From contig CBDDGB010000002.1 in the NCBI GenBank assembly GCA_965227435.1, positions 678,181-742,180 on the forward strand: a stretch of DNA of 64,000 bases, in the 5' to 3' direction. The first letter of the stretch is position 1; every line of letters starts with the position of its first letter. This stretch comes from Halioglobus sp. (GTDB lineage Bacteria; Pseudomonadota; Gammaproteobacteria; Pseudomonadales; Halieaceae). The notes under the pieces were generated by a model, which was not told the origin of the DNA, did not search any database, and worked only from the letters and a program-made list of their open reading frames with translations. This document shows positions 15,643 to 39,748 of this stretch, one piece after another. The position numbers and the translations under genes are program-made.

Positions 15643-16377
15643 ATGAATGGCCCGCCGTCACCTCTTCGTCGCTTCGGGCGCGAGCTTAAACGCCGCGGCG
15701 TCACCCGCGCCTGCGTTCTCTATATTATCGCCTGCTGGGTCATCCTGCAGGTCGGCGATATCGTGCTGAACTCCCTCGAGTCGGACATGACTGCGGTTTC
15801 ACAGGGCCTGTTAGTGGCCGCCGTGCTGGGGCTGCCCGTCGTGATCACGATCTCCTGGTTTTACCAGTTCTCAGCCGCCGGCATTCGGCGCACGCCAGCG
15901 TTCACCGAGCGGCGAGTACTCGACAATATCGCCATCATCGACGACCGGCGCAAGGACCCGCCATCGCGGGGCTCACCCTCGCGACAGGAGGCGAGCTACG
16001 ACTGGGTTCTCGAGATCGACTCCGGCCCACTCTCAGGTAAACGCTACGGTGTAGACGCAGATGTCATCGTTGGCCGCTCCTCCAGTTGCGAATTGACGAT
16101 ACCGGTGGCGCATATTTCTCGGCGACACATGCGTTTTCGACTCGACGATGACGGACTGCTGCTCGAAGACCTCGATTCATCCAACGGCACAACGTTGAAC
16201 GGCCGAAAAATCAACGCCCCTACCCTCTTGCACCACCATGACACGATAGAAATTCCGAATGTAAAAATCAGAATCCTCGAAAATCTCGCAAGGTCGCGCG
16301 CGACCGATGCAGCCACTCAACACACACTGCAGATCGCCACAGAACGCGATACCCACAAAGTCTCTCGAGAAACTTGA
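15643..16377 (+). CDS. Membrane-anchored FHA-domain protein
   Basis: Two N-terminal TM helices; FHA motifs VGRS, ISRRH, DSSNGT. Confidence 0.85.
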   Translation: MNGPPSPLRRFGRELKRRGVTRACVLYIIACWVILQVGDIVLNSLESDMTAVSQGLLVAAVLGLPVVITISWFYQFSAAGIRRTPAFTERRVLDNIAIIDDRRKDPPSRGSPSRQEASYDWVLEIDSGPLSGKRYGVDADVIVGRSSSCELTIPVAHISRRHMRFRLDDDGLLLEDLDSSNGTTLNGRKINAPTLLHHHDTIEIPNVKIRILENLARSRATDAATQHTLQIATERDTHKVSRET

Positions 16378-16401
16378 CTTAGCATCCGCACCAGCTATAA
16401 A
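16374..16401 (+). promoter_or_regulatory. Sigma70-like promoter for the redox operon
   Basis: TTGACT-N16-TATAAA overlapping the upstream stop codon; GGGAG RBS before TTG 16486. Confidence 0.55.
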
Positions 16402-16485
16402 TAAGCAGACACGACAGGAACGTCCGCTAAGGCGCCGGAAGAGCGCCCATGCACCCGAAAATTACAAAAACGGGAGTGCACAGAA

Positions 16486-18984
16486 TTGGCTGAGAGCTAC
16501 CACATCGCCATTATTGGCGCTGGTCCGGCTGGCCTTAGTGCAGCTGGTAGAGCTGCCCACCACGACAGGGAGTCAGGTGTAAGTTCACCCACCTATGTTC
16601 TCCTTGAAGGCTTCTCTACCTTCGCGAAAACCATCCAGAAGTACCAGAAAGGCAAGCACGTCATGGACACGCCTGGCTTCCTGGACCTGCGCAGTCCCGT
16701 GCCCTTTGTCGCGGGTAAGCGCGAGGAAATCCTGGGCGGCTGGCAAAACAGTATCGACACCGACAGCATCAACATTCGCTACAACAGCGAAGTCACGGCT
16801 ATCGAGGGCGAGCGCGGCAACTTCTCTATCAAGACATCAAGCGGCGAGACCATCAACGCCGAGCATGTCGTCATGTCAATCGGCACACAGGGCAACCCGC
16901 GGGCACTCGGCGTAGAAGGTGATGCTGAATCTGACTTTGTGATGTATACCCTTGATGATCCTGAAGAATTCCAGGGCGAGAGCATCGTTGTGGTGGGCGC
17001 CGGCGACGCCGCAATCGAGAACGCCATCGCGCTCGCCGAGTACAACAAGGTCTACATAATCAACCGGCGGAACGAATTCAGCCGCGCCAAAGACGGCAAC
17101 CTCAATGCAGTGCTCGCGGCTATCAACGACAAGGGCCGCGACTTCCACTGCTTCTACGAGACCAACGTGGGCGGCCTCGAACTGCCCGGCGAGCCCGGCA
17201 GCGCGGGCGCCATCATCCTCAATACCGCGACCGGTGAGGAGCGCGTCGAGTGCCATCGCATTATCGCCCGCCTCGGCACCCTCCCCCCGCGCAAATTCGT
17301 CGAGTCCTGCGGCATCGAGATCTCCAGCCCCAGCGCTGACGCGGTGCCGGACGTCGACAACGAATACATGAGTAACGTCCCCGGTCTTTACGTAATCGGG
17401 GCGCTGGGTGGCTACCCGCTGATCAAGCAGGCAATGAACCAGGGTTACGACGTGGTGGAATACATCCACGGCAATCACGTCGAACCGGTCGATACGCCGA
17501 TCCTGAAGAAGAAGTTCCAGGGTCTGCCGATCAAGATGCCGACCCCGGAAGACGTGCTGTCGCTGTACCAGTCAAAGATTCCCATGTTCCGCCGCATGAG
17601 CCCGTTGGCCTTCCGCGAACTCATTATCGAGAGCCGGATACTCGTGGGGCTCGAGCCCGCAGAGTACGAGCGCACGAGCAAGGATGAGGACGAGCACGCC
17701 ACCGTCTTCATCAAGGATGGCGAGCCCGTGTACCAGCACGGCGAATACTCCACGTCGTTCTACACGCTGGTCGAGGGCGATGTGCGCATGCAGCTCGACG
17801 AGGACGGCACGTGGCACAACATTTCGCCCGGCCAGTTCTTCGGCGAGATGAGCCTGATTTCGGGGCGCCCCCGCCAGGGCAGCGCCATTGCCGATCGCGA
17901 CTGCATACTGATCGAGACCCCTCGCCGGATCATGGTCAAGCTCATGAACTCGAACGAGGAAGTGCGCGCCGGCATCGACAGGGTCTTCATCATGCGCGCG
18001 CTGCAGGCCGCGTTCCAGCCACAGCTTTCACTCGACGCGCTTGCCGACATTGCAGGGCGTGTCGAGCCCTGCACCTTCAAGGCGGGCGAAACCATCTTCA
18101 GCCAGGGCGAATCCGGCGACCACCTGCACCTCGTCCGAAGTGGCACCGTGACCTTGTCACGTGGCGACCAGGACATGGTTGTCGCACAGCTACAGTCCGG
18201 CGAACTGGTGGGCCAGATGGCGCTCATGGGCGCGCCGGTGCGCCGCGACACCGCCACGGCTGCGGTGCGCACGGAGACACTGAAGGTCTACCGCGACGAA
18301 TTCCTGGCCATGGTGAACAGCCAGCCGGGGCACGTTGAAGAGCTGCAGGAAGAACTCAGCGAGGTGATACGCCAGACCAACGCCATGGGCTCGCAGCCGG
18401 AGTCTGCGCGCGCCATCGGCTTCCTGATGGACCAGGGCCTCGGCGAGGCCACCAATGCGCTGGTGATCGACGAAGCGCTCTGCGTTGGCTGCGACAACTG
18501 TGAGAAAGCCTGCGCGGAAACCCACGGGGGTATCTCCCGACTGCGCCGCGAGGAAGGCGCATCGCTCGCTTCACTGCACGTGCCCGTTGTTTGCCGTCAC
18601 TGCGAGCTGCCGCACTGCATGAAGGATTGCCCACCGGATGCGCTGCGTCGCGCCGCCTCGGGTGAGGTCTTCATCGATGCAGAAACCTGCATAGGCTGCG
18701 GCAACTGCGAAACCAACTGCCCGTACGATGCCATCAAACTCAGCTACCAGCCGGAGCCGAAGCCTTCGCTCTTCTCCTGGCTGTTCTTCGGTCGCGGCTC
18801 AGGCCCGGGCGAACAGGATGACTTCACGGCCACCGAAGCCTCCAAGAACTCAGGCAAGAAAGCCGTGAAATGCGATGCCTGCATGGATCTCGCGGGCGGC
18901 CCCGCCTGCGTTCGCGCGTGCCCCACAGGCGCCGCGGTCAGGCTGGGCCCCGAACAGTTCGTTGAACTGGTGGAGGCCCGCTAG
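16486..18984 (+). CDS. FAD/NAD(P)H oxidoreductase + two cNMP-binding domains + 4x[4Fe-4S] ferredoxin domain
   Basis: GAGPAG, GAGDAA..INRR; FFGEMSLISGRPR and LVGQMALMGAPVRR; 16 Cys in four clusters (CVGCDNCEKAC, CRHCELPHCMKDC, CIGCGNCETNC, CDACMDLAGGPACVRAC). Confidence 0.9.
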   Translation: MAESYHIAIIGAGPAGLSAAGRAAHHDRESGVSSPTYVLLEGFSTFAKTIQKYQKGKHVMDTPGFLDLRSPVPFVAGKREEILGGWQNSIDTDSINIRYNSEVTAIEGERGNFSIKTSSGETINAEHVVMSIGTQGNPRALGVEGDAESDFVMYTLDDPEEFQGESIVVVGAGDAAIENAIALAEYNKVYIINRRNEFSRAKDGNLNAVLAAINDKGRDFHCFYETNVGGLELPGEPGSAGAIILNTATGEERVECHRIIARLGTLPPRKFVESCGIEISSPSADAVPDVDNEYMSNVPGLYVIGALGGYPLIKQAMNQGYDVVEYIHGNHVEPVDTPILKKKFQGLPIKMPTPEDVLSLYQSKIPMFRRMSPLAFRELIIESRILVGLEPAEYERTSKDEDEHATVFIKDGEPVYQHGEYSTSFYTLVEGDVRMQLDEDGTWHNISPGQFFGEMSLISGRPRQGSAIADRDCILIETPRRIMVKLMNSNEEVRAGIDRVFIMRALQAAFQPQLSLDALADIAGRVEPCTFKAGETIFSQGESGDHLHLVRSGTVTLSRGDQDMVVAQLQSGELVGQMALMGAPVRRDTATAAVRTETLKVYRDEFLAMVNSQPGHVEELQEELSEVIRQTNAMGSQPESARAIGFLMDQGLGEATNALVIDEALCVGCDNCEKACAETHGGISRLRREEGASLASLHVPVVCRHCELPHCMKDCPPDALRRAASGEVFIDAETCIGCGNCETNCPYDAIKLSYQPEPKPSLFSWLFFGRGSGPGEQDDFTATEASKNSGKKAVKCDACMDLAGGPACVRACPTGAAVRLGPEQFVELVEAR

Positions 18985-18986
18985 GT

Positions 18987-19859
18987 ATGCACCAGAGTCT
19001 CCTGAGCTGGCAGCGCTTTCGCTATCTCTACGTGGCGCTCACCGTTGCAGTGGTGAGCATCCTCCTGTACGCGACCCAGGGCGGCAACTCGGCACAGCCT
19101 CCCAACGGCGGCACCTGGCAGGGCTACGTGCTCGGCACGGTAGGCGCACTGCTGATTGTCTGGCTCAGCCTGCTGGGCGTGCGCAAGCGCCAATACAGCT
19201 CCAACGTGGGTTCAGTGCAGGGCTGGGCCTCCGCGCATGTCTACCTGGGTATCGCGCTGTTGCTCGTCGCTACGCTGCACTGTGCCGCGCAGTTCGGGTG
19301 GAATGTACACACGCTGGCCTATGTGCTGATGTGCCTCGTGATCGGCACAGGCATCTACGGACTCTACGTTTACCTGCACCTTCCGCGTGCGCTGGCGCGC
19401 AACCACGCGGGGCGCGACGCGCAGAGCTGGATGAAAGAGCTCAGCGAAGTCGACGATGGCATCCGCGACGCAGCGAGCAAGGTCGACGCCGACCTGCAGT
19501 CCATGACGCTGAGCGCACTGGACCACACCCGACTGGGCGGCGGAGTCATGGCGCAGCTGTTTGCCCAGGACCGTTGCCGCGTGCGACAGGGTGGCAGCCT
19601 CGTGTCCAACAGCGGGCAGGACGTCATGATCAACGAGCTCTCGCGGCGCATACCCGATGCCAGCCGGGTCTCGGAAGCCGAAGTGCTGATCGAGCTACTG
19701 TCGATGTTTGGTCGTCGGCAGGTGATCCTGCAGCTGTTGCGCAAGGACGTGCAATACCGTGCACTCCTCAAGGTGTGGCTCTATTTCCACGTGCCCCTGA
19801 CGATGGCCCTACTCGTGGCCCTCACAGTGCACATTATTGTTGTCTTCCTCTACTGGTAG
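18987..19859 (+). CDS. Integral membrane protein, ferric-reductase-like putative di-heme b
   Basis: About 5 TM helices; His pairs HVYLGIALLLVATLH and HVPLTMALLVALTVH. Confidence 0.75.
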   Translation: MHQSLLSWQRFRYLYVALTVAVVSILLYATQGGNSAQPPNGGTWQGYVLGTVGALLIVWLSLLGVRKRQYSSNVGSVQGWASAHVYLGIALLLVATLHCAAQFGWNVHTLAYVLMCLVIGTGIYGLYVYLHLPRALARNHAGRDAQSWMKELSEVDDGIRDAASKVDADLQSMTLSALDHTRLGGGVMAQLFAQDRCRVRQGGSLVSNSGQDVMINELSRRIPDASRVSEAEVLIELLSMFGRRQVILQLLRKDVQYRALLKVWLYFHVPLTMALLVALTVHIIVVFLYW

Positions 19860-19863
19860 CGCC

Positions 19864-21594
19864 GTGCACTATCTGATCAGAACTCTCACGGGACGCGGCG
19901 GCGACACAGCCCTCGACACAGAGTACTCCGCTGACCAGCTGACGCTCGGCAGCGGTGACAAAGACACGGTGCAGCTGCCCGGCCTCTCCGGCCAGCTCAG
20001 GTTCAGCCCCTCGGGTGATGGCAGCGCAAGTTTCTCCGCCAAGGGCATCAAGGCCACCATAGGCAGCGACACCACCGCCAAGGCAAAGGTCGCGATAGGC
20101 GACCAACTCAAGGTACCTGGCTATGCGATCGAGGTCATCGCGGCGCCCACAGGCTTCGACTTTGCACTGCAGATTGCCTCGGAAGGCGTCAGCTACGCCG
20201 ACAGCATGGATATCGGCGAACGCCTGTGGAGCATGCGCCGCTCCAGCTGGCTTCTCGCGTCACTGGTGCTTGTTCTTTGCTTCATTATTCCACTTGGCGT
20301 GCTGCTTTCACCCGACACGGCCAAAACGCTGCGGGATGCACCGCTGCCCGACGACGGCATGTGGTCCAGCGGCCCGCTGATCAGCGCGCACTCAACAGCG
20401 GGCATAGCGGAGGACTGCCAGTCCTGCCATACAACCCCGTTCGTCATGGTGGAAGACCAGGCCTGCCTGGACTGTCACCGCGACATCAAGGAACACGTGG
20501 ACATCGGCATACACGGCGCGGAGGACTTTGCAGACGTACGCTGTGCCACCTGTCACCGCGAGCACAATGAACCCGCTGCCCTGGTGCGCACAGACAACGG
20601 CCTCTGCGTCGACTGCCACGCCGAGCCCGCCCGTTTCCCGAAAGCCGAGGGTATGGCCGAGGCGCACAAGTTCACGGCCGACGATCACCCCGAGTTTCGC
20701 ATCGATCTTCTGGTACCCAAGGGTCGCGGCGGCTCCATGACCTGGGTGCGCGAGGCGCGCCGGCTTAACGAACCGGGTCTCGTGGAGCAGTCCGGGCTCA
20801 AGTTCAATCACGATGTGCACATGAACCCTGCCAAGGTGAAAGACCTTGTCACCGACGAGGCGCTGGTGTGCGACAGCTGTCACCAGCTTGAGGCGGACAA
20901 CGAGCACTTCGCGCCCATCACCATGGACGGCGAGTGTCGCAGCTGTCACGAACTGACCTTCGACAAGTTCGCACCCAAGATGGAGTTGCCGCACGGCAAC
21001 ACCGAAGCCGCCCTCGTGGCTATGGAAGCGCACTATATTCGCCAGTTTACCGACCCGGAACTGCGCGCCAAACGCTCCAGCGTTCGCGGTTCGGACTCCA
21101 GGCGCCGTAAGCCCGGCAGCAAGCGCAATGAAGGTGAAACCTGCGAAGGCACACCCTTCGAGTGCGGCCGCCAGGAAACCGCCCGACAAGCCGGGGTACA
21201 GTTCAGCAAAACAGGCTGTGTAACCTGCCACAACGTGGTTGATTCCGAGAGCGACAACCTTCTCGACCGCTACTACGTGCAGCCGGTGAAAATCACGGGC
21301 GACTGGTACACGGGCAACCGCTTCGACCATCGCGCCCATATGGCCTTCCGGGGCGAGAACCAGGACGAGGTCTGCATGACCTGCCACGAGGTCATGACCT
21401 CTTCGGTGTCGGAGGACATCCTGATACCCGGCCGCGACAACTGCCTTGCGTGTCACGACGACAACCTGGGCGACACCACCGTTTACTGCGTCAGCTGTCA
21501 CGCATTCCACCTGCCCGCGGGCACACTGTCGACCGAGAGCCGCAACATCGGCTCGATGTCCGGGAGTCCACATGGCAGCACTGAGGGAGAATAA
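19864..21594 (+). CDS. Membrane-anchored decaheme c-type cytochrome with FHA-like N-terminus
   Basis: 10 CxxCH motifs; TM WLLASLVLVLCFIIPLGVLL; GTG start at 19864 preferred over TTG 19837. Confidence 0.88.
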   Translation: MHYLIRTLTGRGGDTALDTEYSADQLTLGSGDKDTVQLPGLSGQLRFSPSGDGSASFSAKGIKATIGSDTTAKAKVAIGDQLKVPGYAIEVIAAPTGFDFALQIASEGVSYADSMDIGERLWSMRRSSWLLASLVLVLCFIIPLGVLLSPDTAKTLRDAPLPDDGMWSSGPLISAHSTAGIAEDCQSCHTTPFVMVEDQACLDCHRDIKEHVDIGIHGAEDFADVRCATCHREHNEPAALVRTDNGLCVDCHAEPARFPKAEGMAEAHKFTADDHPEFRIDLLVPKGRGGSMTWVREARRLNEPGLVEQSGLKFNHDVHMNPAKVKDLVTDEALVCDSCHQLEADNEHFAPITMDGECRSCHELTFDKFAPKMELPHGNTEAALVAMEAHYIRQFTDPELRAKRSSVRGSDSRRRKPGSKRNEGETCEGTPFECGRQETARQAGVQFSKTGCVTCHNVVDSESDNLLDRYYVQPVKITGDWYTGNRFDHRAHMAFRGENQDEVCMTCHEVMTSSVSEDILIPGRDNCLACHDDNLGDTTVYCVSCHAFHLPAGTLSTESRNIGSMSGSPHGSTEGE

Positions 21595-21597
21595 AAC

Positions 21598-23793
21598 ATG
21601 AAATGGCGTGCACTATTGCTCAGCGGGGTTCTTGTCCTCGGAGCCTGCGGAGGCGGCGGAGGTAGCGGCGCACCGGGCCAGGGTTCAGCACCCGGCGATG
21701 ACCCTGCCGGTCGTTCATGCGACGGCTTCTGCGCAGATGCGGGCGCACCGATCTTCCTGACCCAGGCAGACGTCAAACGCATTCTCGCGCAGGCCGTGCA
21801 CCAGGCCGATGCGCTCGGCGCAGAGCAGGTCACCGTCGCCGTTGTCGACCGCGTTGGCAACGTGCTCGCCATCCACCAGAAAGGCGGCGGACAGATTCTG
21901 CGGGTCACCACCGACGACCCCAACGAGGTGCGCGCCGCCCTCGACGGCCTGACGATTCCAGCGGAGTTCAGCCCGGACACGCTCGCAGCCCTGGCCAAGG
22001 CGATAACCGGCGCCTATCTGTCGAGTGAAGGCAATGCCTTCACCACGCGCACCGCGAACCAGATTGTGCAGGAGCACTTCAACCCCGGCGAACGCAACCA
22101 GCCCAGCGGGCCGCTGTTTGGCGTGCAGTTCAGCCAGCTCGCCTGCTCCGACTTCATGATGCGCGCCACCGGCAACGGTGTCAGCGTGGGCCCGCACCGC
22201 TCTCCCCTCGGTATGTCTGCTGACCCGGGCGGCCTGCCGCTCTACAAGGACGGCACGGTAGTCGGCGGCATTGGCGTTCTGTCCGATGGGCTCTACAGCG
22301 TCGATAAGAACATCCTCAACAACGACCGCGACAACGACGAAATGATCGCGGTGGCCGGCTCCTTCGGCTTCGCAGCGCCCAAACCGCGCCGCGCCGATCG
22401 CATCACGGTCGAGGGCAAGACATTCCGCTATGCGGACGTAGACTTTGACAACCTGCCCGTGTCGCCCGAAGACGCGCCTGCCTACGAGAACGTTGGCGGC
22501 ATGCTGGTCGGCGTTAACGGCTATTACACTGTGACTGGCGACGACGACGCCGACATACTCGCGGGCACGGCGTTTACAACACCCGCCTCCGGCGTTCGCG
22601 CAGTCCAGGCCGGCGACTACCCCGCACAGGACGTCGCCGACTTCCAGGAACTGCAGGCCTTTACCTTCGTCGACCAGAACAACGCCGTCCGCTTCCCGCC
22701 CATCGATGGCACAGACGCCGCACAGCTTGCCCAGAATGGCGGCGCCGCGCCGATCAGCGCCGAGGAAGTCACGCAGCTGATGAAGAACGCCCTTGGCGTT
22801 GCACTGCGCGGCCGCGCGCAGATCCGCACCCCCCAGGGCACGCCGATTCGGGTAACCATCTCTATCGTCGACTCGCAGGGCACCATTCTCGGCATGATGC
22901 GAACCCGCGACGGCCCGATTTTCGGGTCTGACGTGTCACTGCAGAAAGCGCGCACCGCCGCCTTCTTCTCATCGACAGATGCCGCCGATGTCCTGCGCTC
23001 AATCGACGACCTGACATTCATTCCGCGACTTGAGGTAGAAGGCCTGCCGCCGCTCGGACCCGTTCCCAACCTGCAGTACATCGAGATCGACCCGGAGCTG
23101 GTTCCACCAGGACTCCCGGTACTGCGAACCTATAGCACGCCGGTCTTTTTCGCAGATTACGTGACAGCCGCCAAGGAGTTCATCGGCCCCACTGCACTTG
23201 AGGACGGTGTGGCCTTTGCAGATCGCTCCGGCGGTAACCTCTCGCGGCCCTTTTATCCCGACGGGATTCGCAATACCGCAAACGGTCCGTTCAGCAAGCC
23301 ATTTGAGCTGGCCGACCCGGGCAGCGTCGAGTGGAGCGTCTTCTCTAGCGGACTGCAGCTCGACCTCGTGCTCGGGCGAGTGCTGCAGCACGCGCTGTTC
23401 TCGCTGGGCGACCCCCGAGTCCCTGACGTTGGCGACAACTGCATCGGCGTTGAGGCGGAAGCACCCCGACGCATCAATAACGGCATCCAGATCTTCCCGG
23501 GCTCGGTGCCCATTTTCCGAGGTGACCAGCTGGTTGGCGCCATCGGTATCTCGGGCGACGGTATCGACCAGGACGACATGATTTCATTCCTCGGGCTGCA
23601 CGAGGCTGGCCTCGCGCTGACGGAAGCGCGACAGGCGGAGGTCGACGCCGGCACGTATACGCCGATCGGCAATGCACCAAAGGATATGCGTGCTGACCAG
23701 CTGCAGCCCAAGGGCGAGCGCTTGCGCTATATCCAGTGCCCGCAAACACCATTTATAGGTAGCAGCGAAAACTTCGTCTGCGACGGCAAATAG
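21598..23793 (+). CDS. Lipoprotein with two GlcG/HbpS-like heme-binding domains
   Basis: Lipobox LGAC; repeats VTVAVVD..G / LAKAITGA / GGLPLYKDGTVVGGIGV and VTISIVD..G / LQKARTAA / GSVPIFRGDQLVGAIGISG. Confidence 0.85.
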   Translation: MKWRALLLSGVLVLGACGGGGGSGAPGQGSAPGDDPAGRSCDGFCADAGAPIFLTQADVKRILAQAVHQADALGAEQVTVAVVDRVGNVLAIHQKGGGQILRVTTDDPNEVRAALDGLTIPAEFSPDTLAALAKAITGAYLSSEGNAFTTRTANQIVQEHFNPGERNQPSGPLFGVQFSQLACSDFMMRATGNGVSVGPHRSPLGMSADPGGLPLYKDGTVVGGIGVLSDGLYSVDKNILNNDRDNDEMIAVAGSFGFAAPKPRRADRITVEGKTFRYADVDFDNLPVSPEDAPAYENVGGMLVGVNGYYTVTGDDDADILAGTAFTTPASGVRAVQAGDYPAQDVADFQELQAFTFVDQNNAVRFPPIDGTDAAQLAQNGGAAPISAEEVTQLMKNALGVALRGRAQIRTPQGTPIRVTISIVDSQGTILGMMRTRDGPIFGSDVSLQKARTAAFFSSTDAADVLRSIDDLTFIPRLEVEGLPPLGPVPNLQYIEIDPELVPPGLPVLRTYSTPVFFADYVTAAKEFIGPTALEDGVAFADRSGGNLSRPFYPDGIRNTANGPFSKPFELADPGSVEWSVFSSGLQLDLVLGRVLQHALFSLGDPRVPDVGDNCIGVEAEAPRRINNGIQIFPGSVPIFRGDQLVGAIGISGDGIDQDDMISFLGLHEAGLALTEARQAEVDAGTYTPIGNAPKDMRADQLQPKGERLRYIQCPQTPFIGSSENFVCDGK

Positions 23794-23803
23794 GGACAGG
23801 GGG

Positions 23804-31703: not shown

Positions 31704-31727
31704 GGCAGCCAGGCAAGGAGAACCATC

Positions 31728-31826
31728 ATGGCAGAAGAGCATCAACCGATCGGCTGGCAGTACATCTGGGGAGTCGCAATCGTGGGCACCGCCCTCGGAA
31801 TAGCGCTCGTTTACGTACTCCTGTAA
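31728..31826 (+). CDS. 32-aa membrane microprotein paralogous to the PP2C C-terminal helix
   Basis: AAGGAG RBS 31715-31720; MAEEHQPIGWQYIWGVAIVGTALGIALVYVLL*; not in the ORF track. Confidence 0.8.
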   Translation: MAEEHQPIGWQYIWGVAIVGTALGIALVYVLL

Positions 31827-31858
31827 ACGCAGTCGACGGAGAATCTGGGAGAAAGAAC

Positions 31859-32941
31859 ATGGCAGATCAAGGCGTCACCGCCCGTCTGGTCGCGAGCGAC
31901 GGCACGGCCTATGAATTGTCCGGTGAACAGACACTGGGCAGGTCCAAGGACGCAGACATTACTATCAGCGATCCGAAAATCTCGCGCCAACACGCTCGTT
32001 TCACACTCAGCGGCGAAAGCCTCACTGTAGAAGACCTCGGCTCGGCTAATGGCACCCGAATAAACCAGCGCAAGATCGACGGCGCTGCCGCACTTGCCAA
32101 CGGCGATACCGTCAGCTTCGACACCGTGGATCTCAGGGTTGAAGTCATCGGCGCCGATGCGGGTGGTGACGATTCCGACGAAGCCACTATCATCGGTAGT
32201 CTCGATGAAGAGGCCACCATGGTCGGCATGGCCGCGGCAGAACCTGCACCGGATCCGGAACCGGAGCCAGCGCCAGAACCGGAGCCCGCGCCAGAACCGG
32301 AGCCCGCGGCAGCACCGGAGGGCAAGGTAAGCGCTTCCGCGAAATCAGAATCCAAGGAAGCCGATGTGCCGGACTCCTGGACGGACGAGTCTGCGGGCGG
32401 CTCGGAAACCCAGTTCATCACACCCGAGATGGCCAAGCAGATCGCCGAGATGGCAGAGGACGTCAAGGTCGAAGCCGCGTCAGACCTGCCCCACCTGATT
32501 GTGCTCAACGACAACGGCACGCAACAGGTCGTTGAGCTTGAGACCGGCGCCGAAGGCGCTGACGTCTGGGAAATCGGCCGCGATGATTCCTGCCAGATCG
32601 TACTGCCGCAAGTCGGTGTCTCGGGGCGCCACGCGCAACTGGTTCACGAGGACGGACGCTGGCGGATCGTCAATCTCGTCTCAACGAACAGCATCTTCGT
32701 GAATGGCGAGAAGCGCCCCAAGGCCTTCCTCGGCAACGACGACAAGATCGGCCTCGGCGAAGCCAAGCTGGTATTCAAAGTGGGTAAAGGTGGCGCTGCA
32801 GCACCGCGTCCGGCCGACGCGAAGGCAACCTCAGGCGGCGGCGATTCAGCAGGTGGCGGCGGCATGTCTGCCGGCAAGATCGGTGGTATCGTCGGCGCGG
32901 TCGTGGTTCTCGCCGCGGTCGCTTACTTTCTGCTGGGCTGA
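31859..32941 (+). CDS. Double-FHA protein with PEPEPA linker and C-terminal TM anchor
   Basis: FHA1 LGRS..ISRQH..SANGT; FHA2 IGRD..VSGRH..STNS; C-terminal hydrophobic helix. Confidence 0.9.
   Translation: MADQGVTARLVASDGTAYELSGEQTLGRSKDADITISDPKISRQHARFTLSGESLTVEDLGSANGTRINQRKIDGAAALANGDTVSFDTVDLRVEVIGADAGGDDSDEATIIGSLDEEATMVGMAAAEPAPDPEPEPAPEPEPAPEPEPAAAPEGKVSASAKSESKEADVPDSWTDESAGGSETQFITPEMAKQIAEMAEDVKVEAASDLPHLIVLNDNGTQQVVELETGAEGADVWEIGRDDSCQIVLPQVGVSGRHAQLVHEDGRWRIVNLVSTNSIFVNGEKRPKAFLGNDDKIGLGEAKLVFKVGKGGAAAPRPADAKATSGGGDSAGGGGMSAGKIGGIVGAVVVLAAVAYFLLG
32242..32321 (+). repeat. Coding 18-bp repeats (PEPEPA linker)
   Basis: CCAGAACCGGAGCCCGCG-like units encoding EPAPDPEPEPAPEPEPAPEPEPAAAPE; boundaries approximate. 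Confidence 0.75.
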
Positions 32942-33834
32942 GGCCCTCCCGCCTCCGCCAGCGACGACAGCGTCGCTGGCCAACTCTCCAACCAACAACA
33001 GCGATGGTCGTAAACCGGCAGGGTCACGACCTCGCTGCGTGGTGGCTTGAGGCCGGTACGCTTCTGGAAAGACTCGGCGATCGACGCAGGCACCTCGCTG
33101 TCACGCTCACCCACGAGGTGTAACTGAACAAGCTCGTCGCGCCAGTTCGCAAGCGCCGCAGGGTTTGAGTTGGCGGCAAGCTCAGTGTAGCCGTGATGAC
33201 TCGTCCAGGCGGCCGTGTCCAACGGTGCTGCGATGGTAACAACACGCGCCACCCGCGCAACCTCGCGCGCCGCCAGCAACGCGATCACCCCTCCCCCGCT
33301 GTAGCCAACCAGTGTGACATGAGCCTCGGGATATCGCTCGACCACCTGTTGAAGCGCCGCGACAACCGCTGCAACCACTCTGGGGCTGTAGCGGGCGACG
33401 GTCCATAGCGTAGGGTCACAGGGCGAGTTCGACGCCTGGCCGTAGTAGCAGGGCCGGGCGAGGAACAAACTGGGTGCCGGGTCAGCGATCGCAAGCTGTA
33501 GTCCCAGGTGCTCACGACTCGTGGGATCGCGCGCGACACGCTGGCGAGAGAGAAATGCGCGCCCATCGCCGCCGAGGTAGATGTGTAGCTCCGCCGTACC
33601 TGGAGCGATCGATTCACTGAACAGCGGCAGTTGAAAGTCGCGCGCCCCGAGCGTTTCCCGAGCCCAGCCAGCATGCTCGAGTAGGTGTCTTTCAGCGGGG
33701 GCAGGCAGAACCGAACAGCCCTGCACGGCGAGGAACATGCCGACGATGGCCAGCGCACGAAAAAAGGGCACATTCGCTACATCGGCGCACCGCTTAAGCC
33801 ACTGTTTTTCTGAGAATTTATTGGTAGTTTTCAA
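32923..33834 (-). CDS. Putative lipoprotein alpha/beta hydrolase
   Basis: Lipobox VQGC, HIYLGGDG, GYSGGG, YDHRCCW; start uncertain. Confidence 0.75.
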   Translation of the reverse strand: MKTTNKFSEKQWLKRCADVANVPFFRALAIVGMFLAVQGCSVLPAPAERHLLEHAGWARETLGARDFQLPLFSESIAPGTAELHIYLGGDGRAFLSRQRVARDPTSREHLGLQLAIADPAPSLFLARPCYYGQASNSPCDPTLWTVARYSPRVVAAVVAALQQVVERYPEAHVTLVGYSGGGVIALLAAREVARVARVVTIAAPLDTAAWTSHHGYTELAANSNPAALANWRDELVQLHLVGERDSEVPASIAESFQKRTGLKPPRSEVVTLPVYDHRCCWLESWPATLSSLAEAGGPQPSRK

Positions 33835-33914
33835 GGTCCGACCCGGCCGAATTTTTAATGACGATCTGCGGCTCTTGGCCTAGTATATAACTGCTCGCCG
33901 ACAACACTAATTAC

Positions 33915-35408
33915 ATGAACGGAGTCGCTATGAAGTTGCCAATTGCAGGAGTTGTTACCACGGTTGCCCTCGCCTACGCAGGCCCACTGTCCGCGCAGGT
34001 AGACGATGACCTGAACGACCTGGGCCGCGCTGTACAGGCTGCAGCGAACGACACGCCCAACCAGGTCTCGGCGGGGAACTCGATCCAGAACACCTGCGCC
34101 GACCTTGCGAGTGAACGACCCAACGGCATTCCCATGAATGACGACCCGGAAGACAACCTCGCCCTGCGCTGTACGCAGATGGTCGTGACAGCCATCGACC
34201 TGAATACGCCAGGGCCGGGTCGCGGGGGCTTTAACATCGGCCTCAACAACGAGCAGCTGGCGGAAGCCATGCAGCAGCTGTCCGGTGAGGAACAAGTATC
34301 CAAGGGTCGACTGGCGACTGAGAGTTCCAATGGCCAGTTTGCCAACATCGGCATGCGCCTCGACGCAATCCGTGCCGGCGCTCGCGCAACCGCGGGCGGG
34401 CTGAGCGTTGCCATGAACGGCGTGCCGGTGTCGGGTGGCAACGCCGGTGACGAGGGCACGGGCTGGGGCTGGTTCCTGAACGGCGCGGTCGGGAACGGTG
34501 ATCGCGACGCCACCCAGGGCGAAGACGAGTACGAGTACGATTCCTTTGGCGCCACCCTGGGCTTCGACTACATGTACGACTCTGGCTTTGTGGCAGGTAT
34601 CGCTATTGGCTACAGTGACTATGAAGTCGACTTCGAAACCACCCAGTCCTTTGTGGCAGGCACGGATCTCACCAGCACGCAGTCAGGCGGCGGCTTCGAT
34701 ATCGACGGCTACGCCATCAGCCTCTATGGCATTGGCGATATCGGCCCGATATCGGTGGACGGCCTGATCAGCTATGGCCAGAGCGACTACGGCACCGAGC
34801 GCATCATCGATTACCGCAGCGCCCCTGGCGCGCAGGACACCATCATCGTAAATCGTTCGATGACGGGCAGCACAGACAGCGAATCACTCACCATCGGCCT
34901 CAACGCGAGCAAGGTGTTTGATCTCGGCGGAGTAGACCTCGCGCTCAGCGGTGGCTTCAGCTACCTCGACCTGACCGTCGACGGCTATACAGAGAAAGAC
35001 AGGGCGATCGGCATGGACACTGCCGCTGTCAGCGGCCTGGCCCTGCAGTACGACGACCAGGATGTTGACTCACTGCAGTCCGCCATCGGCGCGCAAGTGT
35101 CCAAAGTGTTCAGCACGGGCGCGGGCGTTGTACTGCCCTATGCAAAGGTCGAGTGGCGGCACGAGTTTGAGAACGACGCTGACGCACTGAAAACGCGCTA
35201 TGCGGCCTACGATACCGACACTCCGGCCGACAACAGCGACCTCATCGTGATCTCAGATGACCCTGACGAGGACTACTTCGAGGTAGGTATCGGCGTCTCC
35301 GCCGTATTTGCGCAAAACATCCAGGCGTTCATCGACTACACCACCACGGTTGACCTCGAGGACGTGGATGCCAACCTTTTGACTATCGGCATCAGGGGTT
35401 CGTTTTAA
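33915..35408 (+). CDS. Autotransporter beta-barrel protein with short passenger
   Basis: Signal peptide; WGWFLNG, GATLGFDY, LPYAKVEWRHEF, C-terminal IGIRGSF. Confidence 0.85.
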   Translation: MNGVAMKLPIAGVVTTVALAYAGPLSAQVDDDLNDLGRAVQAAANDTPNQVSAGNSIQNTCADLASERPNGIPMNDDPEDNLALRCTQMVVTAIDLNTPGPGRGGFNIGLNNEQLAEAMQQLSGEEQVSKGRLATESSNGQFANIGMRLDAIRAGARATAGGLSVAMNGVPVSGGNAGDEGTGWGWFLNGAVGNGDRDATQGEDEYEYDSFGATLGFDYMYDSGFVAGIAIGYSDYEVDFETTQSFVAGTDLTSTQSGGGFDIDGYAISLYGIGDIGPISVDGLISYGQSDYGTERIIDYRSAPGAQDTIIVNRSMTGSTDSESLTIGLNASKVFDLGGVDLALSGGFSYLDLTVDGYTEKDRAIGMDTAAVSGLALQYDDQDVDSLQSAIGAQVSKVFSTGAGVVLPYAKVEWRHEFENDADALKTRYAAYDTDTPADNSDLIVISDDPDEDYFEVGIGVSAVFAQNIQAFIDYTTTVDLEDVDANLLTIGIRGSF

Positions 35409-35426
35409 ACCGCCACCGGGCACAGT

Positions 35427-37004
35427 ATGAGTAGTGACCGTCCGCCCGGGAGTTCACCCCCGGGCGATTCTTCCAACAAGCAGGTCAATCCCGCAGACCT
35501 GGAACAGGAAACCGAGGTCCGCGACACGGCGGATGACCCCACCGCGCTGTCTGAAGACGAGACAGCGGCCAGCGCCCAATCCTCCTCTCCCGGCGGCGGA
35601 GACCCCGCGCCGGGTGACCTCGTGTCCGGGCGCTACCGACTCGAGAAAAAACTCGGCGAGGGCGGCATGGGTACCGTCTTCCTCGCACTCGATGAGGTAT
35701 ACGCAGGGGAGTTCGAAGACAAGAACGCCCATGTCGCGCTCAAGTTCTTAAACACCAAGTTCTCCCAGCACAAGATTTCGCGCATCGCGCTGCAACGTGA
35801 AACGCGCAAGTCGCAGCAGCTCGCCCACCCCAACGTGGTGCGTGTCATGCACTTCGACGTGTACGAAGACACGCCCTACATGATCATGGAGTTCATGCGC
35901 GGCCAGCCCATGGACGAGTACCTGGCTGAACGTCGCGGACAGGCAATGACCCTCGAGGAGGCCATGCCGCTGATCAAGGGCATGGCGAACGGGCTCAAGT
36001 ACATTCACGAAGAGGGCCTGGTGCATTCAGATTTCAAGCCGGGCAACGTGTTTGTCACCGAGTCGGGCGTGCCGAAGATCCTCGACCTCGGAATCGCGCG
36101 CATCAGTGAGTCGGTACAGGACGAGGATCACCAGACCAAGTTCGACGTGTCCGCCCTCGGCGCACTGACGCCGACGTACGCCAGCTGCGACATGTTTGAC
36201 GGCATGCCGCCCGACCCCAAGGACGACATCTACGCCCTCGCCCTGGTGATCTACGAGCTGCTGGCCGGGCATCATCCGTTCGAACGCACACCGGCCAACC
36301 GTGCCCGCGGTAACGGCATGCAGCCACCGCGTATCAAGTCGCTTAACCGCACCCGCTGGCGTGCGCTGGAGCAGGGCCTCGCCTTTGAGCGCGACAAGCG
36401 CATCGACAGCGCAGAGGCACTCTACAGCGCCCTGAAAGGCGACAAGCAGCGCCGCAAAATGGTGACGCGCGGTCTCGCCGGCGCCACGTTGCTGGCTATC
36501 CTGACGGCAGTAGCCATCGGCATCTTTGGCGTCAAACCAACAGACCCTGATGAGGCCTACAAAATCGAATTGATGGGCATCTCGCTGGATGCACCGCCGC
36601 CCGAGCCAGATGATATGGCGCGCATTGCACGCTGGCTGGACCAGGGCCAGGCTTATGTGAACATCGCGCGCGATATCTTCGACCAGGGTGACCTCGTCAC
36701 GGCGCACCACGTCCTGCAGGTCGGGGGCGACAATGCGCTTGAGGCCTTTATGTCGATCCTGAAACGCACCTCCCATGACGAAGCCGCGGCAGGCATGCTG
36801 GATATCGTAAACCTGTACGCGAGCTGGTCAGGGGCTAAACTGGAAGAAGGCGATGCTGCGGCCGCGCTGTGGACGGCTTGCCAGGGCCTTGCCCTGCACG
36901 GTGGCCACGAAGAGCTGAACAGCCTGTATGCGCGCGCCGCCAAGACACTGGGCCAGTCACAGCCGGACTGTGAGACCGTGATGCTCACAGAACCGGCAAC
37001 GTAG
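35427..37004 (+). CDS. Membrane-spanning Ser/Thr protein kinase (Hanks type, non-RD)
   Basis: LGEGGMG, VALK, HSDFKPGN, DLG, DIYALA; TM helix then C-terminal extracytoplasmic region. Confidence 0.92.
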   Translation: MSSDRPPGSSPPGDSSNKQVNPADLEQETEVRDTADDPTALSEDETAASAQSSSPGGGDPAPGDLVSGRYRLEKKLGEGGMGTVFLALDEVYAGEFEDKNAHVALKFLNTKFSQHKISRIALQRETRKSQQLAHPNVVRVMHFDVYEDTPYMIMEFMRGQPMDEYLAERRGQAMTLEEAMPLIKGMANGLKYIHEEGLVHSDFKPGNVFVTESGVPKILDLGIARISESVQDEDHQTKFDVSALGALTPTYASCDMFDGMPPDPKDDIYALALVIYELLAGHHPFERTPANRARGNGMQPPRIKSLNRTRWRALEQGLAFERDKRIDSAEALYSALKGDKQRRKMVTRGLAGATLLAILTAVAIGIFGVKPTDPDEAYKIELMGISLDAPPPEPDDMARIARWLDQGQAYVNIARDIFDQGDLVTAHHVLQVGGDNALEAFMSILKRTSHDEAAAGMLDIVNLYASWSGAKLEEGDAAAALWTACQGLALHGGHEELNSLYARAAKTLGQSQPDCETVMLTEPAT

Positions 37005-37045
37005 CTCGTGCTGCATTAAAGGGCCCAACCTAAGAGGACTTGACC

Positions 37046-39748
37046 ATGAAACGCCACATACCCCTCGTTGCCCTCGTGTTTATGGCGCTACCGACACTGG
37101 TGGCGTCCCAGCAGCAAGAGGCACTCAGCAAGGACTATGGCCTCGTGGACGCCAACAAGCCGGTGGTGTGCCTGCTGCCGGGGCGCGTGCGCAAACTCGG
37201 TTCCGTTATGACCTACCTGGAGCGCCGCAAGCCCGCGAAGATGACCGCATCAGAGTGCGAAATTCGCGGCGGTGAATACACACTGTACGATCGCGCGAAC
37301 TACGAGAACGCGCTGGCCGTGTGGATGAAAGCCGCCGAGGAAGGCGATGCCACCGCGCAGGTCTACGTGGGAGAAATCTACGAGAAGGGCTGGGTGGGTG
37401 AAGCCGACTTCGCCACCGCATCCACCTGGTATGCCAAGGCGGCGGAACAGGGTGATCGGCGTGCCCAGCGGCGCCTCGCCTATTTCTACGAAAACGGGCT
37501 GGGCGTCGGCGAGGACCGCGACAAGGCCCTCGGACTCTGGCGTACCGCACTTGGCCTGAAGGAGGATCTCGTACTGGCATCTGAGCTGGAAGCGGCCAAG
37601 TCAGAAGCGCAGCGCAAAATCGACTCGCTGGTGGCGCAACTCGAGGAACAGAACATCCAGACCGGTCGCCTGCAGCGCAATCTCGACGAAGTACGTGCCT
37701 CACTCGCAGAACAGTCCCGATCGCTGCAGACAGCGCAGTCAGAGGCGCGCAGGCTCGAACAACAGGTGGTGACGTCCCGCGCAGCGGGAGACAGCGCGCG
37801 GGTGCGGGAACTGGAGGCACAGCTGGCAGCCAGCGAGTCGCAGGTAGAGGAACAGGAAATCGCCATCGAACTACTTGAAGCTGATGTGGCCGCGCAACAG
37901 GCCCAGGTGAGCGCCAGCATGCGCCGCGCCGATGTCCGCGGCAAGCAGCTTGCCAAAGCGCAGGCTGACTTGCTCGCAGAGTCGAGCCGCGGTGCAGCAC
38001 TCCTCAGGCAGCTGAAGGAGAAAGACCAGGCGGTAGATGCGCTTGAACAGCAGGTCGCGGACGCACAAACACAGCTCGCGCAGTCCAAGAGTAGACAGCA
38101 ACAGCTCTCCAACCAGATCTCCACGGCACAGGGCGCAGGCAAGGCGCAACTGGAACAGGAACTCGCCCAGGCGCTCGCCGATGTCCAGAAGCGCGAGCAG
38201 CAGATGCAGACGCTAAAGAGCCAGGCCGCGCAGCAGCGCGCGGCGTTCGACGCCCAGCTCGCCGAATCCAAAATACGAGAAGCGGATCTCGGCACCGAGC
38301 TGGCAAAAAGCCAGCAGGAAAAAGCGCAGCTGGCGAAGCGCCTCTCCAGCACCAATGGCCGACTGGATGCACTGGAGAAAGAGCTTACCGATGCCCGATA
38401 CCAGCTAGTCGACCGGCAAGCGGCGGCCGAGGGCCTGCGTGACGAGCTTGCAGCACTCGGCAGCAATGACAGCGCCGCACGCGAGAGCCTGAATCTCAAA
38501 ATCGCCGAGCAGGAAAAAGCGATCGCCGCGCTTCAGAAAGAACGTGACGACCTGGTGGCCGGCTGGCAGGAAATGGAACAGGAGCGTGACACAGTCCGCT
38601 CAGAGCTATCAGACGAGGTAGACACCACGAGCTGGCTCAACGTGGAGCTGGAATCCGCGAGCAGCAAAATGGCAGGCCTGCGCGACGAACTGAAGGCCGC
38701 CCAGCTGGCACTTGCCGATGCCAACTTCGCTAAAACACAGTTGACGCAAGACCTGGCGCGGATGCAGGAGGACCTGGATCGCAGCGAGCAGCGCAGTGCG
38801 TCCGATCGACGTCTGATGGAACAACAGATGAGCAAACTGCGCGAGCAGCTGGCCGACGTGGACGCGGGCGTGGCTCAGGCTCGTACCGTGGCACTGCGTA
38901 CCGAGAGTGACTTCCAGCGCTTCGGGCAACGCCAACAGTCGCGTGCGCAGGCGCTGAGCGAGGCGCGCCCGCAGGTCGCTTCTATCACGAAGATTCCCAA
39001 GGGCGCACCCAAGGTTCGCTACCGTGCGGTGATCATCGCCAACTATGACTACGACTACCTGCCTGACCTTTCCTCGCCACCGAATGACGCTAACCAGTTG
39101 AAGAAGGTACTGGAACAGGCGTACAACTTCGACGTGAAGGTGCATATCAACCTCAGCCGCTCCGAGATGTACAAGGTGCTCGCCCAGGTCCGCAAGTTCG
39201 ACGAGAAAGATAGCGTGCTGCTGTACTACGTGGGCCACGGCAAGATGGACGAATTCGGTGACGGTTACTGGTTGCCTACCGACTACAGCGCCTCGCGGCC
39301 GCTCGCCGATGCGGTCTCGAGCGCCGACCTGACGCAGACGATGAGCCAGAGCAAGGCCAGACACCTCATGGTGATGGCCGACAGCTGCTATTCCGGCGCG
39401 CTGGCGCGCAATGGAGACCCCACGCTCGCCAAGAGCATCCCCGCCCTGCTCAACTACTGGATGGCAAACAAGTCGCGCACCGTGCTGACGTCTGGCGGCT
39501 TAAAGCCTGTACTGCGTGAGGGCCCAAACAACCACTCCATTTTTGCGAAGGCACTGATGGATGTGCTGCGCGACAACGGCGGCGCTATCAACGGCGAGAT
39601 GCTGCACGCGCAGCTCTACGACAGAGTGCGGGAATCGGCCGCACAGGCCGGCTTCCTCGACCAGAAACCGCAGTTTGCGGCGGTAGAGGACGCAGGGCAT
39701 GAAAACGGCCAGTTCGTGTTCCTGAAGCCGGATACGGTTAGGCTCTAG
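37046..39748 (+). CDS. Exported Sel1-repeat / long coiled-coil / caspase-like (peptidase C14) protein
   Basis: Signal peptide; Sel1 repeats; heptad-rich middle; YYVGHG and ADSCYSG dyad; alternative TTG start 37040. Confidence 0.85.
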   Translation: MKRHIPLVALVFMALPTLVASQQQEALSKDYGLVDANKPVVCLLPGRVRKLGSVMTYLERRKPAKMTASECEIRGGEYTLYDRANYENALAVWMKAAEEGDATAQVYVGEIYEKGWVGEADFATASTWYAKAAEQGDRRAQRRLAYFYENGLGVGEDRDKALGLWRTALGLKEDLVLASELEAAKSEAQRKIDSLVAQLEEQNIQTGRLQRNLDEVRASLAEQSRSLQTAQSEARRLEQQVVTSRAAGDSARVRELEAQLAASESQVEEQEIAIELLEADVAAQQAQVSASMRRADVRGKQLAKAQADLLAESSRGAALLRQLKEKDQAVDALEQQVADAQTQLAQSKSRQQQLSNQISTAQGAGKAQLEQELAQALADVQKREQQMQTLKSQAAQQRAAFDAQLAESKIREADLGTELAKSQQEKAQLAKRLSSTNGRLDALEKELTDARYQLVDRQAAAEGLRDELAALGSNDSAARESLNLKIAEQEKAIAALQKERDDLVAGWQEMEQERDTVRSELSDEVDTTSWLNVELESASSKMAGLRDELKAAQLALADANFAKTQLTQDLARMQEDLDRSEQRSASDRRLMEQQMSKLREQLADVDAGVAQARTVALRTESDFQRFGQRQQSRAQALSEARPQVASITKIPKGAPKVRYRAVIIANYDYDYLPDLSSPPNDANQLKKVLEQAYNFDVKVHINLSRSEMYKVLAQVRKFDEKDSVLLYYVGHGKMDEFGDGYWLPTDYSASRPLADAVSSADLTQTMSQSKARHLMVMADSCYSGALARNGDPTLAKSIPALLNYWMANKSRTVLTSGGLKPVLREGPNNHSIFAKALMDVLRDNGGAINGEMLHAQLYDRVRESAAQAGFLDQKPQFAAVEDAGHENGQFVFLKPDTVRL

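Follow-up and report, generated by a model that had tools for sequence, protein, structure and literature searches.

The island of genes between positions 15,643 and 39,748 of a 64-kb stretch of Halioglobus sp. DNA (contig CBDDGB010000002.1; the whole stretch of 64,000 nucleotides is referred to as the window) contains a multihaem cytochrome operon (g2 to g8 in Table 1). It is accompanied by genes for a Hanks-type Ser/Thr kinase (g13), a PP2C phosphatase (g9) and proteins with forkhead-associated (FHA) domains (g1 and g10). Triads of Hanks-type kinase, PP2C and FHA proteins gate secretion systems and cell-wall synthesis. A preliminary description of the stretch had suggested, by analogy with the type VI secretion system (T6SS), that phosphorylation may control the assembly or activation of the redox machine encoded here, and the locus raises the question of whether such signalling proteins do act on a chain of cytochromes. 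In the reading that we prefer, to which we assign a probability of about 0.6, the locus holds two functionally coupled modules, a redox machine (g2–g8) and a Hanks-type phospho-signalling set, and the machine is probably switched by protein phosphorylation. The best-supported claim within this reading is that the PP2C and double-FHA proteins, and in some lineages the kinase cassette as well, appear to be functionally coupled to the redox machine.

Linkage of the phosphatase and double-FHA genes to the redox operon

The largest protein of the operon, the decahaem cytochrome g7, has a large number of relatives. A homologue search with a limit of E ≤ 1e-5 yields more than 7,600 proteins, and the top 120 are all at least 68% identical to g7. 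A scan of species-representative genomes finds at least 598 loci, and the best 80 of these (62–80% identity), from Gamma-, Beta- and Alphaproteobacteria and Acidobacteriota, were analysed. The core operon recurs in all 80 as far as the contigs extend (by tblastn and clustering of open reading frames, ORFs). The order g2-g3-g4-g5-g6-g7, usually with g8, is kept wherever the contigs extend, with g2 relocated 3′ of g8 in Betaproteobacteria and Acidobacteriota. In six Burkholderiales loci (L049, L062, L065, L068, L073 and L076), cytochrome-c maturation genes of the ccmA/B/C and ccmI types lie upstream of g3, and g2 again follows g8; no recurrent extra cluster other than ccm was found in the 80 related loci. 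The clustering is not due to chance; these genes are found side by side again in many further genomes. The genes g2–g8 form a conserved unit, predicted to span the envelope and to transfer electrons, that is separable from the signalling set.

Some of the contigs have irregular labels or gene calls. Three operon contigs with 65–80% identity (L001, L034 and L051) are labelled as metagenome-assembled genomes (MAGs) of Bacteroidia, Streptomyces and Bordetella parapertussis, and are probably mis-binned. In L081 (17866–21440), g7 is present as several shifted fragments with broken gene calls, reflecting either assembly frameshifts or a decaying copy.

In the window, the operon runs directly into the phosphatase gene. 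The stop codon of g8 (TGA, 30718–30720) overlaps the start codon of g9 (GTG, 30717–30719) by 4 bases (GTGA), in agreement with the overlap reported in the preliminary description, and this 4-base overlap recurs in a complete genome (CP019046.1, L170). The genes from g2 to g9 are tightly spaced, with overlaps or gaps of no more than 10 bases, and 155 bases separate g9 from g10. The next gene, g11, is convergent with g10, and g12–g14 form a second tight unit.

The linkage of the two signalling genes to g8 could be assessed in 45 loci, those with g7 and g8 adjacent and at least 2.2 kb of downstream sequence. Of these, 16 have a PP2C gene within 2.5 kb after g8, 17 have a double-FHA gene within 3.5 kb of it, and 15 have both. 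With four exceptions, the positive loci carry the labels Halieaceae, Spongiibacteraceae, Steroidobacteraceae, Granulosicoccaceae, Spectribacter/Salinisphaeraceae, Pseudoteredinibacter and Agarilytica. Three of the exceptions have no label below the level of order, and the fourth, labelled Bacteroidia, is probably mis-binned. A PP2C gene is also located 3′ of g8 in shorter Alcanivoracaceae contigs, outside the 45 assessable loci. The arrangement varies: the order of the PP2C and FHA genes is swapped in L019 with the linkage to g8 kept, L028 has an insertion, and in Fontimonas (L039) g8, the PP2C and the kinase genes have shifted together away from g7.

The signalling circuit had been described as wrapped around the redox operon. 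This holds at the 3′ end, where the PP2C and double-FHA genes follow g8. However, the transmembrane (TM)-FHA gene g1 at the other end is not conserved upstream of g2, being absent there in Parahaliea maris HSLHS9 (L002) and in L003, and the wrapping is therefore partly accidental. A g1-like TM-FHA gene is present in L082. In addition, an unrelated small TM-FHA gene is positioned divergently upstream of the operon in two Acidobacteriota (L054 and L070).

Table 1. Genes of the island, with their positions in the window and the basis of each assignment.
Gene	Product	Position	Strand	Basis
g1	TM-FHA	15643..16377	+	Pfam FHA 63 bits, two N-terminal TM helices
g2	FAD/NAD(P)H oxidoreductase, two cyclic-nucleotide (cNMP)-binding domains, 4Fe-4S	16486..18984	+	Pfam, Protein Data Bank (PDB) matches, Cys motifs
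g3	Probable dihaem b-type cytochrome, 5 TM	18987..19859	+	Conserved His pairs, weak Ni_hydr_CYTB
g4	FHA-fold + TM + periplasmic decahaem cytochrome c	19837..21594 (listed ORF)	+	10 CXXCH, AlphaFold2 (AF2)/Foldseek
g5	Lipoprotein, three HbpS/GlcG-like stretches	21598..23793	+	Pfam, lipobox LGAC
g6	Secreted, 626 aa, probable outer-membrane β-barrel	23804..25684	+	Signal peptide, C-terminal β-signal
g7	Secreted decahaem cytochrome + LVIVD β-propeller, 1,249 aa	25685..29434	+	Pfam, 10 CXXCH
g8	Periplasmic cytochrome c554-like	29416..30720	+	Pfam Cytochrome_C554, CXXCH motifs
g9	PP2C Ser/Thr phosphatase, tail-anchored	30717..31703	+	Pfam PP2C_2 49 bits
g10	Double-FHA, tail-anchored	31859..32941	+	Pfam FHA, 2 stretches, 122 bits
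g11	α/β-hydrolase lipoprotein	32923..33834	-	Pfam
g12	Small autotransporter	33915..35408	+	Pfam Autotransporter β-domain 151 bits
g13	Hanks-type Ser/Thr kinase, TM	35427..37004	+	Pfam Pkinase 129 bits
g14	Secreted Sel1 / coiled-coil / caspase-like C14	37040..39748	+	Pfam Sel1 + Peptidase_C14, signal peptide

The island is flanked by genes for a glutamate dehydrogenase (14115–15545, minus strand) and an aldehyde dehydrogenase (39794–41227, minus strand). Further out (2931–14039 and 41240–63999), Pfam finds ordinary catabolic, lipid and transport genes, including SDRs, alkyl-sulfatase-like proteins, a sulfotransferase, a Rieske oxygenase, luciferase-like monooxygenases, DUF3604 and a wax-ester synthase, a gene content that fits a heterotroph of the marine Halieaceae type. 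Neither Rfam nor a tRNA scan gave a match in the window, and promoter and terminator scans of it gave background levels only.

Signalling proteins and the portable cassette

The signalling, autotransporter and Sel1-caspase genes named in the preliminary description are all confirmed by Pfam at the positions given there, with intact catalytic and binding residues (for the FHA domains, in g1 and g10). The four signalling proteins (g1, g9, g10 and g13) are all membrane-anchored, as had been proposed, based on hydropathy and, for the kinase, also on an AF2 model. The TM segments are located at residues 309–327 of the PP2C and 341–359 of the double-FHA protein, at the C-terminus in both cases, and at residues 346–364 of the kinase, and g1 has two TM segments near its N-terminus. 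A C-terminal TM segment is also present in 12 of 19 orthologues of the PP2C and 17 of 19 orthologues of g10.

The FHA domain of g1 is C-terminal and cytoplasmic, and has the residues for binding phosphothreonine (pThr), GR144, S159xxH162 and N181. The equivalent residues in g10 are GR28/S42xxH/N64 in one domain and GR241/S255xxH/N277 in the other, and the two domains are connected by a Pro/Glu-rich linker. Both proteins thus combine a match to the FHA profile with the Gly-Arg, Ser-x-x-His and Asn residues, and g10 is proposed to be a pThr-reading adaptor. The metal-binding motifs of the PP2C are complete (R21KHNED, D41GVGG, D190G and D229N). Its score against the NCBIfam Stp1/IreP model is 197.7 bits, just under the cut-off of 230.

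The kinase has the residues of the Hanks family (PF00069), with the glycine-rich loop GEGGMG77, K106, E125, HSD202FKPGN207 (D202/K204/N207) and D220LG. The glycine-rich loop, K106, D202/K204/N207 and D220 are invariant in the alignment of the family (A2), which is uniformly of the non-RD type (HSD). In the AF2 model (pLDDT 79), a disordered, Thr-rich N-terminal tail is followed by the kinase domain, one TM helix (residues 339–367) and a confidently predicted, all-helical periplasmic domain (residues 374–518). A TxF[DN] motif is found in the activation segment of 105 of 120 family members, and is a plausible candidate for an autophosphorylation and FHA-docking site.

The kinase gene is located among three other genes for envelope proteins. 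The autotransporter g12 consists of a passenger of about 160 residues and an outer-membrane β-domain. The caspase domain of g14 (Peptidase_C14, 80.6 bits) has the catalytic dyad H732 (in GHG) and C783 (in DSC). In this exported protein, a coiled coil of about 450 residues lies between the Sel1 repeats and the caspase domain, which also resembles the EACC1-associated type (88 bits, cut-off 140).

The genomic contexts of ten kinase homologues were examined to assess co-occurrence from the side of the kinase. (A metagenome scan with the kinase alignment gave mostly generic kinase-domain matches at 30–35% identity, which were not used for co-occurrence.) Four of the homologues are associated with the redox operon. 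L170 (49% identical to g13) and L082 (37%) are located beside it in a layout like that of the window, and L081 (41%) has the cassette together with two double-FHA genes, a PP2C gene, g8 and g7. In L083 (38%), the autotransporter, kinase and caspase genes are inserted between g4 and g5 (8312–13913); a second kinase and an SH3_3 protein are encoded upstream of g2 in this locus. In L166 (45%), the hydrolase, autotransporter, kinase and caspase genes are accompanied by a PP2C gene (47% identical to g9), with no redox gene within 10 kb. L167 (38%) has only the cassette, with no redox gene on the contig side that is available. L165 (37%) has the cassette and an FHA-EAL gene, with no redox gene within 10 kb; the FHA-EAL protein, which combines an FHA domain with a c-di-GMP phosphodiesterase, takes the place of the redox operon there (5080–12701). 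No redox gene is within reach in L164 (37%; caspase, kinase and CsgG), L169 (38%; CsgG, caspase and kinase) or L168 (40%; kinase alone).

The internal order of the cassette is mostly maintained. The hydrolase gene g11 co-occurs with the autotransporter, kinase and caspase genes in L001, L002, L081, L165, L166 and L167. The autotransporter gene is directly upstream of that for the kinase in L081, L082, L166, L167 and L170. The Sel1-caspase gene follows the kinase gene in L082, L083, L166 and L170, and does so after intervening genes in L167 and L081; in L165 it is upstream of the kinase gene, before the autotransporter gene. L024 and L026 have the cassette in inverted orientation. These contexts indicate that the hydrolase, autotransporter, kinase and Sel1-caspase genes form a portable cassette, which is repeatedly but not obligatorily attached to the operon. 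Moreover, it is paired with FHA-tagged outputs (FHA-decahaem and FHA-EAL), which fits a sensor with exchangeable FHA effectors.

The redox machine and the probable FHA domain of the decahaem cytochrome g4

The PDB sequence matches of g2 are to TrxR/FNR, to the regulatory subunits of PKA, and to HycB/NrfC. The protein has four Cys motifs of the 4Fe-4S type and two GxGxxG/A motifs, is 43–72% identical to its counterparts in related loci, and is proposed to be the soluble, cytoplasmic entry point for electrons. Two cNMP domains like those of the PKA regulatory subunit are located between a TrxR/FNR-like flavoprotein domain and a four-cluster ferredoxin domain, an arrangement that implies a second-messenger input on the redox machine.

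The next protein, g3, has five to six hydrophobic segments and scores 20 bits against the Pfam model Ni_hydr_CYTB, under its cut-off of 30. Its residues H84, H98, H108, H268 and H282 are 97–100% conserved in 43 orthologues. The pairs H84/H98 and H268/H282 both have a spacing of 14 residues and are located on two TM helices, with one pair on each helix. Because of these two conserved, 14-spaced pairs, g3 is predicted to be a transmembrane dihaem b-type cytochrome, which probably moves electrons across the inner membrane.

Based on hydropathy and motif counts, the N-terminus of the decahaem cytochrome g4 is cytoplasmic and is followed by a single TM helix; the protein contains 10 CXXCH motifs. 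Its listed ORF starts at a TTG (19837) and overlaps g3. The alignments of orthologues and the lengths of the homologues (576–577 aa) suggest that translation probably begins instead at GTG 19864, 4 bases past the stop codon of g3.

The N-terminal, cytoplasmic segment of g4 appears to be a non-canonical FHA domain, which was overlooked in the preliminary description and is found across all lineages. An alignment of g4 N-termini shows the FHA pattern, and the Pfam FHA model matches those of all nine orthologues tested (22–36 bits, cut-off 20.7), with no match for the degenerate copy in the window. For residues 1–140 of the window protein, an AF2 model has a pLDDT of 86, and its top Foldseek matches in the PDB are all FHA domains, those of EssC (the best), OdhI, GarA, FhaA and Rv1747 (FHA-2). 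The scores of the g4 orthologues against the Pfam model for the YscD cytoplasmic domain are similar to their FHA scores.

The remaining proteins of the operon are exported. The PDB sequence matches of g5 are marginal and are to GlcG/EfgA-like proteins only; the HbpS-like family binds haem or other cofactors. A signal peptide, a C-terminal β-signal (...LNTTLTF) and a composition rich in D, N, G and F are found in g6, with no Pfam match and a weak match to porins (E 1e-4, under the cut-off). The cytochrome g8 has four CXXCH motifs and one CX4CH motif, its C-terminal half is non-haem, and a PDB sequence search gave marginal domain matches only.

The identity of g7 stays at 62–80% across Gamma-, Beta- and Alphaproteobacteria and Acidobacteriota among the best 80 loci. 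Its operon partners are less conserved, with 25–54% identity for g4 and 34–66% for g8, and conduit cytochromes usually show far lower conservation than g7. This degree of conservation resembles that of a strongly constrained enzyme more than that of a protein that simply conducts electrons. The likely terminal redox enzyme of the operon is g7. The closest homologue of g7 is 92% identical and comes from a Halioglobus MAG; an exact-sequence look-up of the window protein found no record.

Alternative explanations, known systems and a proposed mechanism

Several observations weigh against a coupling between the signalling set and the redox machine. Neither a PP2C nor an FHA gene follows g8 in 27 of the 45 assessable operons, so that in most lineages the machine operates without these additional genes. 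Every PP2C-positive locus belongs to the gammaproteobacterial portion of the sample and is among the nearest relatives of the window (66–80% g7 identity), and shared ancestry may account for some of the synteny. The cassette is found without the operon in L165, L166 and L167. The preliminary description had looked to co-occurrence with the cytochrome genes as a check, and the outcome is mixed: the PP2C and double-FHA genes stay with g8 and the cassette adjoins the operon in several lineages, but these exceptions remain. Moreover, PDB sequence searches with g6 and g7 found no relative of solved structure, and none of the RNA sequencing runs searched contains the locus. The last point concerns the FHA domain of g4. 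In every lineage, Ala, Pro or Gly takes the position of the canonical phosphate-contacting Ser, and the window copy has also lost the arginine of the Gly-Arg motif; because of these changes, this domain may not bind pThr.

The restriction of the phosphatase to close relatives would be expected if the juxtaposition had no function and were simply the inherited gene order of one gammaproteobacterial clade. We consider this highly improbable, as the linkage survives swaps, inversions, relocation and insertion, the 4-base translational coupling is found both in the window and in L170, the core cytochrome g4 has a probable FHA domain of its own, and TM-FHA genes are associated with the operon independently in Acidobacteriota. 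The contexts without redox genes, on the other hand, could mean that the g11–g14 cassette (joined by the PP2C in some genomes) acts autonomously in envelope stress, cell death or conflict, regulates its own caspase or other targets, and is only a frequent neighbour of the operon. The pairing of distant kinases with a caspase and CsgG (L164 and L169) and the likeness of the caspase to the EACC1-associated conflict-system type point in the same direction as the three operon-free cassettes. However, the cassette is located beside the operon in the window, L001, L002, L081, L082 and L170, and inside it in L083. Kinase orthologues with only 37–41% identity still adjoin the operon (L081, L082 and L083), and FHA outputs are present in both contexts. 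In addition, g12 and g14 have signal peptides, which makes them envelope proteins, unlike cytoplasmic defence effectors. An autonomous module is therefore unlikely in our view. Anti-phage defence was considered for the cassette as well and is also unlikely, since PADLOC gave generic kinase-domain matches only and the caspase and autotransporter are exported.

It is less likely still that the FHA domains are phospho-independent scaffolds that dock g2, as in YscD of type III and EssC of type VII secretion, with no direct role for the kinase and phosphatase. The altered residues of g4, its similar scores with the YscD model, its best Foldseek match (the N-terminal FHA domain of EssC) and the lack of an adjacent kinase or phosphatase in most operons would all be consistent with scaffolds. 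However, none of the canonical pThr-binding residues is missing from g1 or from either domain of g10, and the operon is translationally coupled to an intact PP2C gene. Moreover, at loci without PP2C, 30 of the 32 g4 sequences in the alignment retain the Gly-Arg arginine (of 34 compared, two have no aligned N-terminus), which argues for a conserved ligand-binding function there. Of the 16 loci with PP2C or FHA genes, 10 have lost the arginine, and the window is one of them. The reading of pThr may have been handed from g4 to g10 in the PP2C/FHA clade, in a pattern that is confounded by phylogeny.

Phosphorylation-dependent coupling, the reading preferred here, has its closest parallel in the threonine phosphorylation pathway of T6SS (PpkA/PppA/Fha1-TagH, and PpkA-TssL-Fha in Agrobacterium; PMC5995506). 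Both have a membrane-bound Hanks-type kinase with a periplasmic sensor domain, an antagonistic PP2C and FHA readers beside an envelope-spanning machine, presumably gated post-translationally at its cytoplasmic face. There are clear differences, however. The TagH/Fha1 model (TIGR03354, cut-off 120.25) gives 77.4 bits for g10 and 33.6 bits for g1, and the periplasmic domain of the window kinase is all-α, with no match to VWA, the domain found in PpkA. The PP2C and double-FHA proteins of the window are tail-anchored, and the machine to be regulated is a cytochrome chain. As had been noted in the preliminary description, no T6SS is present: Pfam finds no tss family among essentially all large ORFs of the 64-kb window. 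The locus therefore is not a member of the T6SS pathway, as the TagH model, the vWA domain and the tss genes all fail, and it appears instead to work like it.

The actinobacterial PknB/PstP/FhaA/FhaB(FipA) cluster also combines a membrane-anchored PP2C, a TM-FHA protein and further FHA adaptors, and the best NCBIfam match of both g1 and g10 is FhaB_Rv0019c, under the cut-off. In contrast to the window, the target of that cluster is the cell-wall and division machinery; the window kinase has no PASTA domains, and the scores are under the equivalog cut-offs. The layout of g4, in which a TM helix connects a cytoplasmic FHA domain to a working domain on the other side of the membrane, is that of YscD/SctD, EssC and the ABC transporter Rv1747, except that the working domain in g4 is a decahaem cytochrome c. 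The FHA domain is phospho-dependent in Rv1747 and structural in YscD and EssC, and that of g4 may be of either kind.

Among electron-transfer systems, the porin-cytochrome conduits (MtrCAB and Pcc), together with inner-membrane entry modules (CymA and CbcL), likewise combine multihaem cytochromes on both sides of the periplasm with an outer-membrane barrel, and this analogy suggests trans-envelope electron transfer by g2–g8. Unlike in these systems, electrons in the window system apparently enter from cytoplasmic NAD(P)H and FeS clusters through a dihaem b protein, and not from the quinol pool. An MtrCAB/DmsE-type conduit was rejected because the family models are not matched: the TIGR03508 scores (cut-off 192) are 34.6 bits for g4 and 22 bits for g8, matches to MtrC domains reach 16–24 bits (cut-off 30), and g6 has no Pfam match.

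A closer parallel to part of the machine has been described in Ferrigenium straubiae, where an FHA-nonahaem cytochrome (NHC) is encoded with a 5-TM protein and a [4Fe-4S] protein (bioRxiv 10.64898/2026.01.22.701106). That preprint (May 2026) states that the combination of FHA and multihaem domains had not been reported before, leaves its function open, and found no redox motif in the counterpart of g3 (bioRxiv 10.64898/2026.01.22.701106). Compared by description only, its three-gene, inner-membrane architecture is the same as the g2–g4 sub-module. The differences are the number of haems (nine, compared to ten in g4) and the lack of any description of g5–g8, the kinase/PP2C/FHA set, the conserved His residues and the cNMP domains. 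A literature search found no description of a Hanks kinase/PP2C/FHA triad coupled to a multihaem-cytochrome electron-transfer machine. Further searches on LVIVD with multihaem proteins (only an unrelated Tenderiales paper), on caspase/FHA/Sel1/kinase combinations and on cNMP with multihaem proteins found nothing relevant.

A mechanism can be proposed from these assignments. Electrons from NAD(P)H would be taken up by g2 through FAD and four FeS clusters, and passed to the two b haems of g3 and then to the ten c haems of g4. From there, they would reach the periplasmic g8 and finally g7 with g6; the outer-membrane barrel g6 and the triple-HbpS lipoprotein g5 would complete the machine. This flow would run outward, from NAD(P)H to a putative terminal acceptor. 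The envelope cassette, with its hydrolase, autotransporter, kinase (through the helical periplasmic domain) and Sel1-caspase, would sense a periplasmic or surface cue, and the kinase would autophosphorylate, with the Thr-x-Phe-Asp of its activation loop as the candidate site. The pThr would be read at the cytoplasmic face of the machine by g10, g1 and, in those lineages that have it intact, the g4 FHA domain, and this reading would gate the assembly of the machine or the flow of electrons. The tail-anchored PP2C, co-translated with the last cytochrome, would reset the state, and the binding of cyclic nucleotides to g2 would provide a second input. The kinase substrate and the FHA ligands in this scheme are putative.

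A more far-reaching form of this proposal is a quinone-independent export of NAD(P)H electrons across both membranes, gated in one gammaproteobacterial clade by the joint action of eukaryote-like Ser/Thr phosphorylation (with FHA domains as readers), cyclic nucleotides and a periplasmic caspase/autotransporter sensor. We offer it tentatively and with low confidence. If it is true, the machine in aerobic marine and soil Proteobacteria and Acidobacteriota would be a functional counterpart of the NADPH oxidases and ferric reductases. Its possible roles would then include extracellular superoxide production and the reduction of metals or humic substances, with an acceptor that is either extracellular or periplasmic.

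The operon has a very wide distribution (at least 598 species-representative genomes), and the conservation of its largest protein is unusually high. If phosphorylation gates the machine, kinase and phosphatase mutants would provide an on/off switch for its redox activity in culturable aerobes, and thereby a route to its function. Moreover, a portable cassette with exchangeable FHA-tagged outputs, a cytochrome in one context and an EAL protein in the other, would represent a new type of envelope sensor.

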